DNA of 19,137 nt from positions 1 through 19,137 of the IMG/VR virus record IMGVR_UViG_2690316028_000003; one strand, 5' to 3'. The notes beneath the pieces are model-generated. The model was not told the DNA's origin. It made no database searches and saw only the letters and a list, made by a program, of their open reading frames with translations. Positions 5,083 through 19,049 of the stretch are shown here, piece by piece. The translations under genes were made by a program, and so were the position numbers. The number at the start of each line of letters is the position of its first letter. Positions within the stretch are counted from its first letter, which is position 1. This stretch comes from a virus (taxonomy: Duplodnaviria; Heunggongvirae; Uroviricota; Caudoviricetes).

Positions 5083-6051
5083 TTAGTAGGTTATTTTTGT
5101 TGCGAATACTTCGCCTTTTACGATGGCTGTTATGATATTTTTAGCAACATCTTCTGATGCGCCAACCTTGATAAGGTCAGCAAGTATTTTGTTATTTACT
5201 TCTTTCCGGTGAGCTTTATCCTTTGCTCTACGCTCTTCTTCTTCCTTGATTCTTTTTTCTTCTGCTATTCTGGCTTGCTCTTTTGCTTCAGCCTCGCGCC
5301 TGATTCGTTCAGCCTCCTCCTGTGCTTTTCGGCGTTCTGCTTCAATTGCCGCCTGCTTTTCTCTTTCAGCTCGTTCTGCTGCCTCTTTTGCTTCGCGCTG
5401 TGCTCGTTGCTCGGCTTCAATGCGTTCACGCTCTGCACGTTCCGCTGCGGCCTTAGCTTCTGCTTCTCGCCTTGCTGCTGCTTCAATTTCGGCTTTTGCC
5501 TTTGCTTCGGCTTCTGCTCTGGCTTTCTCTTCAGCTTCTCTTTTTAAGCGTTCTTCATGCTCTCGCTTTTCCTGCTCCGCTTTGAGTCTTGCCTCTTCTC
5601 TTTGGCGGTCAAATTCGCGATCCATCAAAAACGCTATTTCATGGTCAGACTCAATTTGCTTTGCGAGAGCTTCAGCTGCTGCCTTAGCTTCTTCTTCGGC
5701 TTTAATCCGCGCCTGTTCTTCCTCATAATCAGTAAGAGGCTGGCGCGCCTTGGCTTTCAGTTCATCAAGGCGATCGCGCACTGTCTTGCGGTTAGCATCA
5801 ATTAGCTTTGGAATTTCCTTCAGTTCAGCAACAAGGTCTTTGCCAAGACCATCGAGATATGTTTTCGTCTGCGCAACTTTATACGCCAGAGAAGCGATCT
5901 CCTTTCTGCCCTTTGCCGTTGTGATATCAGGCACAAAGGACATAACTTCACGTTCAACCTTTTGAAGGATTTCTTCAATCTGGTCGGCAGACTGAAATAC
6001 AGTCATTGCATTTGCTTTTTCAATAACAACTAAATCTGTTACTTCACTCAT
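5083..6051 (-). CDS. hypothetical protein with about 170-aa E/A/R/K-rich charged helical (SAH/coiled-coil-like) central segment
   Basis: ORF track 322 aa; GGAGGA SD upstream of ATG 6051; central region is REAEEKARAEAEAKAKAEIEAAARREAEAK...; globular N- and C-terminal ends. Confidence 0.65.
   Translation of the reverse strand: MSEVTDLVVIEKANAMTVFQSADQIEEILQKVEREVMSFVPDITTAKGRKEIASLAYKVAQTKTYLDGLGKDLVAELKEIPKLIDANRKTVRDRLDELKAKARQPLTDYEEEQARIKAEEEAKAAAEALAKQIESDHEIAFLMDREFDRQREEARLKAEQEKREHEERLKREAEEKARAEAEAKAKAEIEAAARREAEAKAAAERAERERIEAEQRAQREAKEAAERAEREKQAAIEAERRKAQEEAERIRREAEAKEQARIAEEKRIKEEEERRAKDKAHRKEVNNKILADLIKVGASEDVAKNIITAIVKGEVFATKITY
5230..5700. repeat. low-complexity imperfect short repeats (gcttc/ctgc-rich) encoding the E/A/R/K segment
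   Basis: Visible short-period repetition on the plus strand; produces spurious Cys/Phe/Ser-rich plus-strand ORFs (5209..5547, 5246..5728). Confidence 0.5.
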
Positions 6052-10184: not shown

Positions 10185-11557
10185 GACAGGATATCGAAGC
10201 GAGCGTTATCGGTGGCCTGCTGATTGGTGGATTAACGCCAACCGCCAGCGACGTTCTGGCAACGCTGGAGCCGGAAGCGTTTTCAATTCCGCTCTACCGG
10301 AAAGCCTTCGAGGTTATCCGCAAGCAGGCGAGAAACAGAAACCTAATCGATGCGCTGATGGTTGCCGAGGCGTGCGGAGAGGAGCATTTCACGTCAATCC
10401 TGATGACCAGCAAAAACTGCCCGAGTGCCGCAAACCTGAAGGGATATGCCGGAATGGTCGCGGATAACTATCACCGCCGTCTGGTGCTGGAAATCATGGA
10501 TGAAATGCGTGAACCAATTCAGAGCGGAACCATCGACGCATCGAGTCAGGCGATGGATGAACTTGTAAAGCGTCTCTCAGCCATCAGAAAGCCCCGTAAC
10601 GAGGTTAAACCGATACGGTTAGGGGAAATCATCACTGACTACACTGACACGCTTGACAGGCGTCTGAGGAACGGAGAAGAGTCAGATACCCTGAAGACCG
10701 GAATCGAAGAACTTGACGCCATCACCGGAGGGATGAACGCGGAAGACCTTGTGATAATCGCTGCTCGTCCTGGTATGGGGAAAACCGAACTGGCGCTGAA
10801 GATTGCCGAAGGCGTTGCAAGCCGCGTTATTCCTGGTTCTGACGTCCGGCGCGGGGTATTGATTTTCTCAATGGAAATGAGCGCATTGCAGATTGCAGAG
10901 CGAAGCATTGCCAACGCCGGGAGGATGTCGGTTAGCGTACTGCGAAATCCTGCATCGATGGATGACGAGGGCTGGGCACGTGTTGCTAACGGCATGAGTC
11001 AGCTTGCAGATTTGGATGTATGGGTAGTCGATGCCTCGCGGTTATCGGTCGAAGAAATACGCTCAATCGCAGAACGGCACAAACAGGAAAATCCAAACCT
11101 GTCACTCATCATGGCGGATTATCTTGGCCTGATTGAGAAGCCGAAAGCAGACCGCAACGACCTTGCAATTGCTCACATCTCCGGAAGCCTGAAGGCGATG
11201 GCGAAAGACCTGAAAACGCCTGTTATCTCCCTGAGTCAGCTTTCGCGCGATGTTGAGAAGCGACCAAACAAACGCCCGACAAACGCAGATTTGCGTGATT
11301 CAGGAAGCATTGAACAGGATGCAGACTCAATCATCATGCTCTATCGGGAAGCGGTATATGACGAGAACAGTAGCGCCGCGCCATTTGCTGAAATCATTGT
11401 GACGAAAAACCGTTTTGGCTCGCTTGGTACGGTTTACCAGCGGTTCTGCAACGGACACTTTGTTGCATGTGACCAGGATGAAGCCAGACAGATTTGCACA
11501 ACATCAAATGCACCCGCTGCACGTGGCAGACGATATGCACAAGGGGCTGACGTATGA
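10181..11557 (+). CDS. DnaB-family replicative DNA helicase (P22 gp12-like)
   Basis: 458 aa; Walker [10 protein letters not shown]; DnaB-like N-terminal domain; ATG overlaps O stop (ATGA). Confidence 0.85.
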
Positions 11558-11658
11558 CCATCTACATCACTGAGCTAATAGCAGGGTTATCGTTACTAAT
11601 GGTTCTTACTGTATATATTATTAAGTATATTCTTTATGCGAATAAAAAAACTAATTGA
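11554..11658 (+). CDS. possible small hydrophobic membrane peptide (34 aa)
   Basis: Manual translation [34 protein letters not shown]; ATG overlaps helicase TGA (ATGA); one predicted TM helix with a basic C-terminus; overlaps the start of the next HNH gene in another frame. Confidence 0.2.
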
Positions 11659-12247
11659 TCACGATGAGCTTCTGTCAACATTATCATATGACTCAGAAAC
11701 AGGAATATTTAAATGGCTAAAAACAAATTCAGTAGTAAGAGTAAAAGGTAGTATTGCTGGAGGTGTTAGTGGTGGTTATATATGCATTAGCATAAATAAT
11801 GTTTTGTATTATGCGCATAGACTTGCTTGGTTCTATGTATACAAAAAATGGCCTCCTAAGTTTATTGATCATGTAAATGGGAACAGACTTGACAATAGGA
11901 TTTCAAATCTAAGACTGGCAACAGAAGAGCAGAATGCAAGAAACATTGTAGGGAATAGATTAAACACATCCGGTGCAATTGGAGTGTCTTGGTATAAGCC
12001 AACTGGCAGGTGGAAGTCTTATGTTGGTTATAAAAATAAGACAATATCGTTAGGGTATTTCGATAGCAAAGAAGATGCAGCATTCATAGCAGCACTAGCA
12101 AGAAAGAAACTATATGGAACTTATGCGAGTAAAGCACTTAATTGCGAGCATGAGCTTTTATCTCAATTTAATAATGATGAGGATAAACTTGCGGAATATC
12201 TTAAGGAAAAATCTAAAAGGACTCGAAATCGTGTTAAAAACAGATAA
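11636..12247 (+). CDS. HNH homing endonuclease (HNH_3 plus AP2-like DNA-binding domain)
   Basis: YYAHRLAWFYVYKKWPPKFIDHVNGNRLDNRISNLRLATEEQN (HNH_3) then GVSWYKPTGRWKSYVGYKNKTISLGYFDSKEDAAFIAA (AP2-like); visibly AT-rich compared with the flanking helicase and ninB; no clear SD. Confidence 0.75.
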   Translation: MRIKKLIDHDELLSTLSYDSETGIFKWLKTNSVVRVKGSIAGGVSGGYICISINNVLYYAHRLAWFYVYKKWPPKFIDHVNGNRLDNRISNLRLATEEQNARNIVGNRLNTSGAIGVSWYKPTGRWKSYVGYKNKTISLGYFDSKEDAAFIAALARKKLYGTYASKALNCEHELLSQFNNDEDKLAEYLKEKSKRTRNRVKNR

Positions 12248-12279
12248 AGGCCTGCTGGTAATCGCAGGCCTTTTTATTT
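12248..12279 (+). terminator. intrinsic terminator (tR2-like) between the replication module and nin region
   Basis: Stem aggcctgc/gcaggcct (8 bp), 8-nt loop, then TTTTTATTT. Confidence 0.65.
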
Positions 12280-12295: not shown

Positions 12296-12736
12296 ATGAA
12301 AAAACTAACCTTTGAAATTCGATCCCCAGCACATCAGCAAAACGCTATTCACGCGGTGCAGCAAATTCTTCCAGACCCAACCAAGCCAATCGTAGTGATC
12401 ATTCATGAGCGCAACCGCAGCTTAGACCAAAACAGGAAGCTATGGGCCTGCTTAGGTGACGTCTCTCGTCAGGTTGAATGGCATGGTCGCTGGCTGGATG
12501 CAGAAAGCTGGAAGTGTGTGTTTACCGCAGCATTAAAGCAGCAGGATGTTGTTCCTAACCTTGCCGGGAATGGCTTTGTGGTAATAGGCCAGTCAACCAG
12601 CAGGATGCGTGTAAGCGAATTTGCGGAGCTATTAGAGCTTATACAGGCATTCGGTACAGAGCGTGGCGTTAAGTGGTCAGACGAAGCGAGACTGGCTCTG
12701 GAGTGGAAAGCGAGATGGGGAGATCGGGCTGCATGA
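12296..12736 (+). CDS. ninB: NinB (Orf-family recombination mediator)
   Basis: From ATG 12296: MKKLTFEIRSPAHQQNAIHAVQQILPDPTKPIVV...ARLALEWKARWGDRAA, near-identical to lambda NinB; track start 12278 is an upstream TTG. Confidence 0.9.
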   Translation: MKKLTFEIRSPAHQQNAIHAVQQILPDPTKPIVVIIHERNRSLDQNRKLWACLGDVSRQVEWHGRWLDAESWKCVFTAALKQQDVVPNLAGNGFVVIGQSTSRMRVSEFAELLELIQAFGTERGVKWSDEARLALEWKARWGDRAA

Positions 12737-13095
12737 CTATCAAATCAAATACGGCAGCGTCAGATAGGTATCGGCTTATTGAGGATTATCTGTATTTAGA
12801 CGGAGATACAGTCAGATACAAAAAGGACTCGCTAAAACACCCCAACCACAGCCACCGGGCCGGAGATGAAATTAAAACATCGATAAATGGATCTGGGTAT
12901 AGACAGGTGTGTTTTGCAGGCATTCAGATGTTTGTTCACGTAGTTGTTTTTGCGCTGCACAACAAAAGAATGCCATTGAAAAATATTGACCATATTAACG
13001 GAAACAGGCTGGACAATTCCCCAAAAAATCTTAGGGAGGCAAGCCGGATAGCAAACAGCCGAAATCAGAAAACTAAGTTCAATAGCCGTTCTTGA
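12733..13095 (+). CDS. HNH endonuclease, HNH_3 domain only; an in-frame TGA separates it from an AP2-like domain that continues to 13260
   Basis: From ATG 12733 (overlaps ninB stop): MTIKSNTAASDRYRLIEDYLYLDGDT...VHVVVFALHNKRMPLKNIDHINGNRLDNSPKNLREASRIANSRNQ; after TGA at 13093..13095 the same frame stays open for 54 codons ([54 protein letters not shown]). Confidence 0.6.
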   Translation: MTIKSNTAASDRYRLIEDYLYLDGDTVRYKKDSLKHPNHSHRAGDEIKTSINGSGYRQVCFAGIQMFVHVVVFALHNKRMPLKNIDHINGNRLDNSPKNLREASRIANSRNQKTKFNSRS

Positions 13096-13256
13096 ATAAA
13101 AAATGTTTTATGGAACAAGCAAAAAAATAAATGGGCCGTTCAAGTGCGCACAGATTTTGGCCGGTTGCATTTTGGGTTCTATGAAGATCTTGAGCTTGCT
13201 GGTTTGGTTGCCAGTGAGGCTATCAACAAATATCACGGACAATATGCGAGGGTTGA

Positions 13257-13787
13257 ATGATTAAGCATAAATCAGAAACACCAAAAGAAGTTAGAGACTG
13301 CTGGCAAACGCCGCTCTGGCTTTTTGATGCACTGGATATTGAGTTTGGATTCTGGCTGGACTCAGCTGCGAGCGACAAAAATGCTCTGTGCGCTCACTGG
13401 CTAACTGAGGCCGACGACGCGCTCAATTCTGAGTGGGTAAGCCACGGTGCAATCTGGAATAACCCACCGTACAGCAATATCAGGCCGTGGGTGGAAAAAG
13501 CCGCTGAGCAGTGCATACAACAGCGACAGACGGTAGTTATGCTTGTGCCAGAGGATATGTCAGTCGGATGGTTCAGCAAGGCTCTGGAGAGTGTCGACGA
13601 AGTTCGCATTATCACTGATGGACGGATTAATTTTATCGAACCATCGACAGGGCTGGAGAAGAAGGGAAACAGCAAAGGCTCAATGCTGCTGATTTGGCGA
13701 CCGTTCATCAGTCCTCGACGAATGTTTACTACCGTATCCAAAGCGGCATTGATGGCGATCGGGCAGGGCGTCAGGAGGGCGGCATGA
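13257..13787 (+). CDS. phage Dam-like DNA N6-adenine methyltransferase
   Basis: 176 aa; [18 protein letters not shown]...[10 protein letters not shown] (NPPY catalytic motif IV); ATG overlaps the upstream stop. Confidence 0.8.
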
Positions 13788-14361: not shown

Positions 14362-14530
14362 CCCATCCCAATCCCTTCAATACCAGAAAGAAAGCGTCGA
14401 GCGAGCTTTAACATGCGCTAACTGCGGTCAGAAGCTGCATGTGCTGGAAGTTCACGTGTGCTCCGATTGCTGCGCAGAACTGATGAGCGATCCGAATAGC
14501 TCAATGTACGAGGAAGAAGACGATGAGTGA
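14354..14530 (+). CDS. ninF: NinF
   Basis: Manual translation [58 protein letters not shown], near-identical to lambda NinF; below ORF-track size cutoff. Confidence 0.85.
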
Positions 14531-15314
14531 GTTAATGAATGGCAATGCCATCAAAATGACAAGCATTGAAATCGCTGAGTTGGTAGAAAGCCGCCATAGC
14601 AATGTAAAAGTATCCATAGATAGATTGGTGAAACGTGGCGTTATCAAGCCTCCTGCATTGCAGCACACTAACATAATCAATGATTTAGGTGTTATTACCG
14701 GGAAGCGTGATTTCTACGTCTTCGAAGGCGAACAAGGAAAGCGAGACAGCATTATTGTCGTCGCCCAGTTGTCGCCAGAGTTCACCGCTCGCCTTGTTGA
14801 CCGCGGCGCGGAAAACGTCGAGCGCCTGGAGCTGATTACTATGCCTTGGTTCCGGGCTGTGCGAGGAAACCATGAGCAGATGATGATTGATGGGCTATCG
14901 GAGTATGGGAACGTCAATCACTGGTTGGCAAATGGTGGCGGCTGGTTCTTCAATCTCGACTATGACAAAGAAGTGCTGGCTAAGGCTCTGGTTCACAAAG
15001 CAGCTGAGCTGCCACTCGTCATCGAGCTGGTTACCGCTGAGCGTAAAATCGTTATCTGCCACGCTGACTACCCGCATAACGAATATGCGTTCGATAAGCC
15101 CATCCCGAAAGATATGGTCATCTGGAATCGAGAGAGGGTTAGCGACGCACAGGACGGCATTGTATCGACGATAGCCGGTGCTGATCTGTTTATCTTCGGC
15201 CACACCCCAGCGCGCCAGCCCCTGAAGTATGCCAACCAGATGTACATCGACACCGGCGCCGTGTTCTGCGGAAACCTCACGCTGGTAAAGGTGCAAGGCG
15301 GTGAACATGCGTAA
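14523..15314 (+). CDS. chimeric protein: Rha/antirepressor-like N-terminal segment fused to lambda Ser/Thr phosphatase (NinI) C-terminal region lacking motif I
   Basis: Residues from about 93 ([34 protein letters not shown]...FIFGHTP...[21 protein letters not shown]) closely match lambda phosphatase residues about 52..221; N-terminal 90 aa ([25 protein letters not shown]...) carry no GDxHG motif and the GD of GDxxDRG is replaced by AR. Confidence 0.7.
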
Positions 15315-18578: not shown

Positions 18579-19049
18579 ATGACCCAGCATATTGGCGTAA
18601 AACTGATTAACGCCTTTCCGATGACGAGACAGGCATATAACGATTTTCGTGGCTGGCAGCTTCCTGCCGGAGAAAACGGCGAGGATGAAGGCTATCTGGT
18701 TGAATATCTTGATGGCGGAAAACCTAACACCGATCGCTTTGATGGCTACGTTAGCTGGAGTCCAAAAGAAGTATTCGAAAAGGCTTATCGTCCGGTATCA
18801 GGGCTAAGTTTCGGCCTTGCCATTGAAGCGCTCAAGTTGGGGAATAAAGTTGCCCGTGCTGGCTGGAATGGTAAGGGGATGTATCTGTTCATTATCCAGC
18901 AGAATGCTTGGGGGTTTGAGTGTGACCTGGACGGAGTTAATGGCCTTGTGACGCTGCCATGCATTTGCATGAAGACAGCGGACGATAAATTAGTACCGTG
19001 GCTGGCTAGTCAGACTGATGTTCTAGCAGAAGACTGGCAAATCATTTAA
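18579..19049 (+). CDS. hypothetical late accessory protein with DUF2829-like (Tad2-like) C-terminal domain
   Basis: 156 aa; C-terminal GLSFGLAIEALKLGNKVARAGWNGKGMYLFII...KTADDKLVPWLASQTDVLAEDWQII resembles DUF2829 as I recall it; N-terminal about 70 aa unassigned; follows a terminator with weak SD. Confidence 0.55.
   Translation: MTQHIGVKLINAFPMTRQAYNDFRGWQLPAGENGEDEGYLVEYLDGGKPNTDRFDGYVSWSPKEVFEKAYRPVSGLSFGLAIEALKLGNKVARAGWNGKGMYLFIIQQNAWGFECDLDGVNGLVTLPCICMKTADDKLVPWLASQTDVLAEDWQII

Follow-up and report, generated by a model that had tools for sequence, protein, structure and literature searches.

A homing endonuclease gene lying directly in front of the dam gene of an E. coli prophage was found to be split by an in-frame TGA between its HNH_3 nuclease domain and an AP2-like DNA-binding domain, as the original prediction had proposed. 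We consider it very probable that this TGA is a private and recent nonsense mutation in a decaying selfish homing endonuclease gene, that is, a case of ordinary decay with no new mechanism. The gene lies in a window of 19,137 nucleotides (the whole stretch of DNA that was analysed), which is the whole of the E. coli draft contig LLYK01000100.1 of the assembly GCA_001484375.1. The window corresponds to the early region of a lambdoid (lambda-like) E. coli prophage and carries recT, gam, kil, cIII, N, cI, cro, cII, O, a DnaB-like helicase gene, the nin genes, Q, and the lysis genes. When a near-identical relative of the whole window was sought for judging the local error rate, none was found; the prophage is a mosaic, and the best whole-window match in this search covered 42%. 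Locally, the window and the locus L001 were 98.2% identical over 2445 nt.

The split gene is located between two genes that are also on the + strand. Upstream lies the recombination gene ninB (orf; 12296..12736), which was assigned by the Pfam NinB family and by homologous loci annotated as recombination protein NinB. Downstream lies dam (13257..13787), a phage N-6-adenine methyltransferase gene of 176 aa identified by Pfam Dam, by PHROG 111 (6e-87), and by the alignment of the junction. The TGA of ninB overlaps the ATG of the HNH gene at 12733 (ATGA). From this ATG, a truncated ORF of 120 aa plus TGA runs on the + strand (12733..13095), and its product is recorded as KUH06511.1 / WP_060617279.1. 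Its translation contains a beta region at the N-terminus and a complete HNH_3 motif, which reads DHINGNRLDN...NLREASRIANSRN. The premature opal codon (13093..13095, + strand) is followed by the base A, and comparison of alleles showed GGA (Gly121) in its place in the others. Beyond it, the frame stays open for 54 sense codons (13096-13257) up to the original TGA at 13258-13260, and this TGA and the dam ATG at 13257 overlap. This orphaned 3' part (13096..13260, + strand) encodes the end of the linker and a domain predicted to have the AP2 fold. The ORF from 12733, its stop, and the 54 further codons up to the TGA at the methyltransferase start had all been described before, and every coordinate proved exact. 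Because 18% of all 162-nt stretches, in any frame, are free of stops in this gene-dense window, the 54 open codons alone are weak evidence, and the case for a split gene is built on sequence homology and not on the length of the open frame.

The domains were assigned with Pfam PF13392 (HNH_3, cut-off 24.8 bits), with Pfam PF00847 (AP2, cut-off 33.3 bits), and with a family profile made from an alignment of 37 homologues of 28-76% identity. The 120-aa product scored 43.5 bits with HNH_3 over aa 67-110, which correspond to profile positions 2-46 of 46; hence, the nuclease motif is complete before the stop. Indeed, the residues that are invariant in the 37 homologues (H69, D86, H87, G90, N95, N99, L100, R101, N108, and N111) all precede it. 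PHROG 99 HNH endonuclease was matched at 6e-43, and the family profile matched I-HmuI (1u3e) at 4.9e-8 over its N-terminal two-thirds. In the AlphaFold model of the intact allele (pLDDT 88.6), the HNH part consists of strands at residues 84-87 and 100-103 and a helix at 105-111, as in the beta-beta-alpha-metal fold, and the top Foldseek match of the model was again I-HmuI 1u3e (E 9.6e-4, probability 1.00). The profile score above threshold, the conserved residues, and the modelled fold would all place the protein among the HNH_3 / His-Me finger nucleases.

The peptide downstream of the stop had been described as a DNA-binding domain of the AP2 type. Profile and fold comparisons are consistent with this description. 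Positions 108-161 of the family profile matched the plant proteins WRI1 (7wq5, 5.1e-7), TEM1 (7et4, 1.3e-4), and AtERF1 (1gcc, 0.13). Furthermore, the corresponding part of the model consists of strands at 125-128, 133-140, and 143-150 and a helix at 153-168, a block with a pLDDT of about 88-97 up to residue 170. Foldseek superposed this block on the AP2 domain of TEM1 with an rmsd of 1.6 A over 48 columns (probability 1.00) and on AtERF1 1gcc with a target TM-score of 0.67 (probability 0.99); the rmsd to the two domains ranged over 1.6-2.5 A, with probabilities of 0.99-1.00. However, the Pfam AP2 model gave no match at E <= 0.1 with either the downstream peptide or the repaired full-length protein, and consequently the protein falls outside the curated Pfam AP2 family. 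Precomputed PF00847 matches exist on several homologues at 30-42% identity. In short, homology at the level of profiles and the predicted fold point to an AP2 domain.

The model has no secondary structure at residues 112-124, which connect the HNH helix to the first AP2 strand, and the stop falls in this segment. Gly121 is kept in at least 90% of the 37 homologues and is part of the sequence 'SG-x-K-x-V-x-W' that leads into the first AP2 strand. Since the stop replaces Gly121 at this entry, it would remove exactly the DNA-binding domain while the nuclease module is left whole. The C-terminal domain was retained by all 37 aligned homologues and is conserved down to 30-40% identity. None of the 37 natively ends at the position of the stop; the possibility raised beforehand, that homologues end there with nothing conserved downstream, did not materialise in this alignment.

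The ancestral codon was examined by comparison of alleles. The 528-nt gene is present at the same ninB-dam junction in 34 of 5426 complete E. coli genomes, in 41 places and at 97.7-99.2% identity, and the occupied junctions are annotated in RefSeq with a single 175-aa HNH endonuclease, e.g. WP_052167194.1. Intact alleles that are 99.2% identical in DNA read through with GGA at the TGA codon of the window. G was observed at 13093 in all 15 other alleles read base by base, and likewise in eight of eight metagenome contigs, which had been found with a degenerate pattern accepting either allele. A scan of one-genome-per-species contigs for either allele found none. A 91-nt probe covering 13050-13140 had no exact match in the complete genomes; the best places in the 34 occupied genomes (41 places) were at most 97.8% identical to it, and T at 13093 occurs in none of these genomes. 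The intact 175-aa protein is recorded on 663 contigs, and the 120-aa product on one, that of the window. The ancestral codon is GGA and the TGA is private to the contig of the window; the original prediction that the TGA stands where a glycine codon, GGA, is expected was thus exact. Furthermore, the 165 nt past the stop (13096-13260) are identical to those of the intact allele L001. Because the sequence downstream of the stop is identical to intact alleles and shows no decay, the nonsense change appears to be recent, and of the explanations offered at the outset it was the first, a recent nonsense mutation, that was borne out.

The nearest intact alleles differ from the window at 3 nt. One of these, at 12754, is common to another lineage, and two changes are private to the window, both of them G-to-T and 14 nt apart: the nonsense change at 13093 (Gly121stop) and, upstream of it, a change at 13079 (+ strand) from Cys116 to Phe, where T occurs in the window but in no other of the 16 alleles compared. 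A local base-call or consensus artefact could give such a pair as well. On this reading, the codon in the strain would be GGA, its 175-aa gene would be intact, and an error of sequencing or assembly in the draft consensus would have produced the T at 13093 and perhaps that at 13079. The TGA allele is indeed a singleton from one draft contig, and seven of the 34 occupied genomes carry the element in two places, which invites a collapsed or mixed consensus. However, T is absent from the known alleles, so no mixture of known alleles could yield it, and the typical errors at this site in other assemblies and lineages are indels in A-runs, of which the window has none. Finished consensus sequences from short reads rarely contain substitution errors. 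Only a base-call error competes seriously with the nonsense mutation; we regard such an error as unlikely and infer that the T at 13093 is biological.

Decay of the gene was also observed in other lineages. At the domain boundary, two A-runs are present on the + strand, A6 at 13098-13103 and A7 at 13121-13127 (together 13098..13127), and 1-nt deletions have occurred in them elsewhere. NZ_LR536431 (L004) has lost one A from both runs and is annotated there with two ORFs, L008 has lost one A from A7, and L016 and P0002, when translated, give the frameshifted reading of the A7-deleted L008 as well. Indels within 13050-13140 were found in three of the 34 complete genomes. In strain 503829 and in one metagenome contig, the A7 frameshift is accompanied by an insertion of IS100 that truncates the gene at its 5' end. 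The protein collection contains further fragments of 105, 110, 117, and 132 aa as well as frameshifted 176-aa forms. As the lesions differ between lineages, the pattern is the one predicted by neutral decay and not by selection for one short product. In public genomes, the site occurs empty or with an intact copy of this gene, and at least four alleles were broken independently; together, they provide a natural example of the life cycle of a homing endonuclease in E. coli prophages.

These fragments bear on a second reading, in which the 120-aa HNH-only protein is still a working nuclease that is kept for use, for example in nicking with relaxed specificity, and is a new functional form. The N-terminal beta region and every invariant HNH_3 residue precede the stop, the ORF still starts at the ninB stop, to which it is coupled, and other HNH-only fragments of the gene are found in databases. 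Those fragments, however, stem from different lesions at different places, which indicates decay and not convergence. The HNH-only allele of the window is private, with no persistence at the level of a lineage, and the retention of the C-terminal domain by all 37 aligned homologues argues against an HNH-only form. We consider a functional short form very improbable, well behind the private nonsense mutation.

Low-level opal readthrough had been listed as a further option. In its stronger form, this would be recoding, with the UGA read by a near-cognate Trp-tRNA or as selenocysteine so that useful amounts of full-length protein, and hence two products, are made. The base after the UGA is A, which is a comparatively weak termination context according to older codon-context work, and homing endonucleases need very little protein. 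The UGA is, however, not conserved: a sense codon is present in the other alleles and in all 37 homologues, where it encodes Gly in at least 90%. Readthrough would place Trp at this conserved glycine, and homologues carry Gly, not Cys or Sec, at the UGA site. The 81 nt around and after the UGA had an MFE of -14.7 kcal/mol, while their shuffles averaged -15.1 (z = 0.14), so that the native sequence is no more stably folded than its shuffles. No Rfam family was found in the window at the gathering threshold, and hence no SECIS-type family was matched. Selenocysteine insertion and programmed readthrough were rejected on these grounds, namely no downstream structure, no Rfam match, and an unconserved UGA. 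Nothing in the sequence or in the relatives suggests that readthrough is used; the option found no support, and recoding for a useful product must be regarded as extremely unlikely.

UGA is the leakiest stop codon in E. coli; reporters in K-12 showed about 2% readthrough at 37 C and about 4% at 25 C (PMC10570021). Given this background, a trace of full-length protein with Gly121Trp may be produced in the strain. One could go further and suppose that the leaky opal codon followed by A yields about 1% of full-length Gly121Trp protein beside abundant nuclease-only fragment, so that the mutation is an accidental expression attenuator and not a knockout. Such a leaky stop would keep the element mobile and lower its toxicity to the lysogen, but we attach hardly any probability to this idea. 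In natural isolates, termination at UGA is generally more efficient than in K-12. Expression of the AP2 part on its own was also considered and rejected. The only in-frame starts (GTG at 13144, TTG at 13165, and TTG at 13204) all lie inside the domain, and no promoter-like site for the AP2 part was found on the + strand. A further start, the ATG at 13103, was likewise rejected for the AP2 part, since it opens a 53-aa ORF in a different frame, which is the reading of the frameshifted alleles.

The nonsense mutation lies within a mobile element whose borders could be placed to the exact base by alignment of the empty site of phage Sf6 with six occupied loci. The identity between Sf6 and the occupied loci extends through ATGACTATCAAATCAAATACGCCAGC (window 12733-12758) and resumes at GACTGCTGGCAAACG (window 13296 onwards), and the empty ninB-dam junction of Sf6/HK97 reads ...AATACGCCAGCACACGACAAGGACTGCTGG.... 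According to this junction alignment against empty sites, a 537-nt cassette (12759..13295, + strand) replaces 10 nt (ACACGACAAG) within the first codons of dam. The cassette contains the HNH-AP2 gene from codon 9 onwards together with a new start and 13 N-terminal codons for dam. The nuclease ORF opens with dam's own start codon and the original first 26 nt (MTIKSNTPA), and the dam ORF with the cassette is 176 aa instead of 175. ninB and dam are direct neighbours, without an insert, in 338 phage records, among them Sf6, HK97, and mEp043, and it was only the sequences flanking the insert that had matches there. At the DNA level, the HNH gene had no match in isolated phage genomes, and the closest phage genes by protein were 37-38% identical. 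The GC content of the cassette is about 41.5%, compared with 51% in the flanking ninB and dam. The nuclease gene is always directly upstream of dam, yet it occurs beside two different, unrelated ninB alleles.

The presence/absence polymorphism at a precise site, the foreign composition, and the association with dam are the features of a free-standing homing endonuclease gene, and the element appears to be one. By the same features, the 5' end of dam is probably the target of the nuclease, and the intact enzyme would be expected to cleave there and to home. A literature search on this element, and on the nuclease activity or the target site of the intact enzyme, found no paper.

The window contains a second gene of the same kind, an intact HNH_3 + AP2 homing endonuclease gene of 203 aa with a GC content of 34% (11636..12247, + strand). 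It was assigned by Pfam, with 57.9 bits for HNH_3 and 29.8 bits for AP2, the latter below the cut-off of 33.3. It is located upstream of a terminator-like hairpin and ninB, and its own insertion site is empty in L002 and L003. The original prediction had treated this gene as a paralog of the split gene. The two do have the same architecture; however, they share only 28% identity, and this value together with the empty sites marks the gene at 11636 as a distant member of the family that was inserted separately. A recent duplication of it as the origin of the split gene was ruled out by the 28% identity and the different insertion sites.

For the private nonsense mutation, we propose the following course of events. 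The nuclease is composed of an I-HmuI-like His-Me (HNH_3) module, a linker of roughly 13 residues, and a C-terminal domain of the AP2 fold. For its expression, the cassette would borrow the start codon of dam, which is translationally coupled to ninB, and the first 8-9 dam codons, and it would provide dam with another start and N-terminus, so that the methyltransferase can still be produced. At 13093, a G-to-T transversion would then have turned Gly121 (GGA) into the opal codon, and the product would end after 120 residues with the whole catalytic motif kept and the DNA-binding domain gone. In modular homing endonucleases, affinity and specificity come mostly from the separate DNA-binding domain, as work on I-TevI and I-HmuI has shown. 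The truncated protein would presumably be unable to find or hold its target site, so that the gene would be dead or nearly so for homing. This loss of activity is what we infer from the domain architecture. Selfish nuclease genes that no longer meet empty sites are expected to degenerate, and the mutation would represent this phase.

The significance of the mutation is small beyond correct annotation: the 120-aa ORF (WP_060617279.1) and the next 165 nt are best annotated as one disrupted HNH-AP2 gene, and not as a nuclease followed by an intergenic gap. The most useful result is the anatomy of the cassette at the dam start, which suggests that the nuclease probably targets the 5' end of dam. 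This sequence would offer a ready-made substrate for an uncharacterised AP2-guided nuclease.

The gene can be compared with several known systems. Among solved structures, the best match to the N-terminal ~105 residues was I-HmuI (1u3e), the intron-encoded HNH enzyme of Bacillus phage SPO1. It is likewise modular and combines a nuclease with a distinct DNA-binding module at the C-terminus; that module is helical (helix-turn-helix) and not AP2. I-HmuI nicks one strand and its gene lies in an intron, whereas the prophage gene is free-standing, and the sequence identity between the two is about 20%. The C-terminal 50 residues share their predicted fold, a three-stranded sheet on a helix, with the plant AP2/ERF domains of AtERF1 (1gcc), TEM1 (7et4), and WRI1 (7wq5). 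In plants, these domains occur in transcription factors, whereas in the prophage gene the domain is joined to a nuclease.

HNH-AP2 homing endonucleases of phages, cyanobacteria, and ciliates have been described by Magnani et al. (2004), as cited in PMC10448857. Like the split gene, the genes of this group, including the 'IPA-HNH' of ICP1, have an N-terminal HNH and a C-terminal AP2 domain and are small, free-standing, and sporadic phage genes. In Vibrio phage ICP1, Barth et al. treated gp115/gp116, an HNH/AP2 homing endonuclease gene that is split between the domains, as inactivated (PMC10448857). The ICP1 gene was split by a frameshift and the prophage gene by a nonsense substitution. Furthermore, the ICP1 HNH was reported to be too divergent for the HNH_3 profile, whereas that of the prophage gene is a canonical Pfam HNH_3. 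Another difference is that the split gene belongs to a lambdoid prophage, where it is inserted at the 5' end of dam.

In its location, the cassette resembles the seg/mob genes of T-even phages and the ShiLan HNH found in actinophage methylase genes (PMC11855218), where a nuclease gene likewise lies in or beside a conserved phage gene. All of these show presence/absence polymorphism between otherwise collinear genomes. The ShiLan nuclease gene sits inside the frame of the methylase and is read out of frame (PMC11855218). Unlike ShiLan, the cassette described here, for which homing is suggested by comparison of sequences, takes the start of the methylase and supplies a new one, and the result is two separate ORFs that overlap by stop and start.

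The 537-nt cassette (12759-13295) that carries the split HNH_3 + AP2 gene was examined at its junctions with dam, the methyltransferase gene into whose 5' end it is inserted. The original start and first 26 nt of dam (12733-12758) now serve the nuclease ORF, and dam in turn receives a new ATG and 13 codons (13257-13295) from the cassette. Because the cassette borrows the dam start and provides a replacement, both ORFs, the nuclease and dam, keep ATGA stop/start overlaps in the occupied locus. This takeover of the dam start suggests that the nuclease would have its cleavage site in the 5' end of dam, and that the replacement N-terminus would destroy that site.

A second private change, at 13079, precedes the nonsense change (TGA, 13093-13095) by 14 nt. 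This G-to-T change leads to Cys116Phe. One mutational event could account for the pair, as could relaxed selection or a local artefact of the consensus. Other lineages have the same gene split by 1-nt deletions, which fall in the A6 (13098-13103) and A7 (13121-13127) homopolymer runs situated at the domain boundary. The region of these two runs is a local frameshift hot-spot. In another E. coli lineage (L008, NZ_CP025869.1, positions 1-1134; also L016), the same HNH gene has lost its first ~42 nt to an IS100 (istA/istB) insertion, and the A7 frameshift is present in this IS100-disrupted lineage, too.

Among the other ORFs of the window, that of 156 aa downstream of the Rz-like lysis gene (18579-19049, + strand) matched Pfam PF11195 (Tad2-like) as well as PHROG 872 (of unknown function). 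It is a possible anti-defence gene closing the lysis cassette. The 263-aa ORF in the ninF-ninG interval (14523-15314, + strand) has no recorded Pfam match and shows mosaic PHROG matches: its N-terminus is Ant-like, and its C-terminal part is common to PHROG 246, annotated as 'NinI-like phosphatase'. Likewise, no Pfam family is recorded for the 322-aa ORF in the cIII-N interval (5083-6051, - strand).

The intact HNH_3 + AP2 gene (11636-12247, + strand; 203 aa, GC 34%) is a discrete insertion of its own, spanning 11592-12248, and its empty site was seen in two homologous loci (L002 and L003). Since this gene and the split gene share only 28% identity, two unrelated homing endonuclease genes have invaded less than 0.5 kb apart. 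On one side, the upstream insertion is bordered by the mini-ORF ATGACCATCTACATCACTGAGCTAATA, whose sequence overlaps the stop codon of the helicase gene. At empty sites, this mini-ORF (region 11554-11660, + strand) has 9 codons (MTIYITELI); hand translation of the window showed that the insertion lengthens it to ~34 codons, including a hydrophobic stretch, and this extension is probably incidental. On the other side, immediately upstream of ninB, a terminator-like hairpin is located at 12246-12273; TTATTT comes after its sequence, AAAGGCCTGCTGGTAATCGCAGGCCTTT. The hairpin was found in occupied and empty loci alike, and its location is probably similar to that of lambda tR2.
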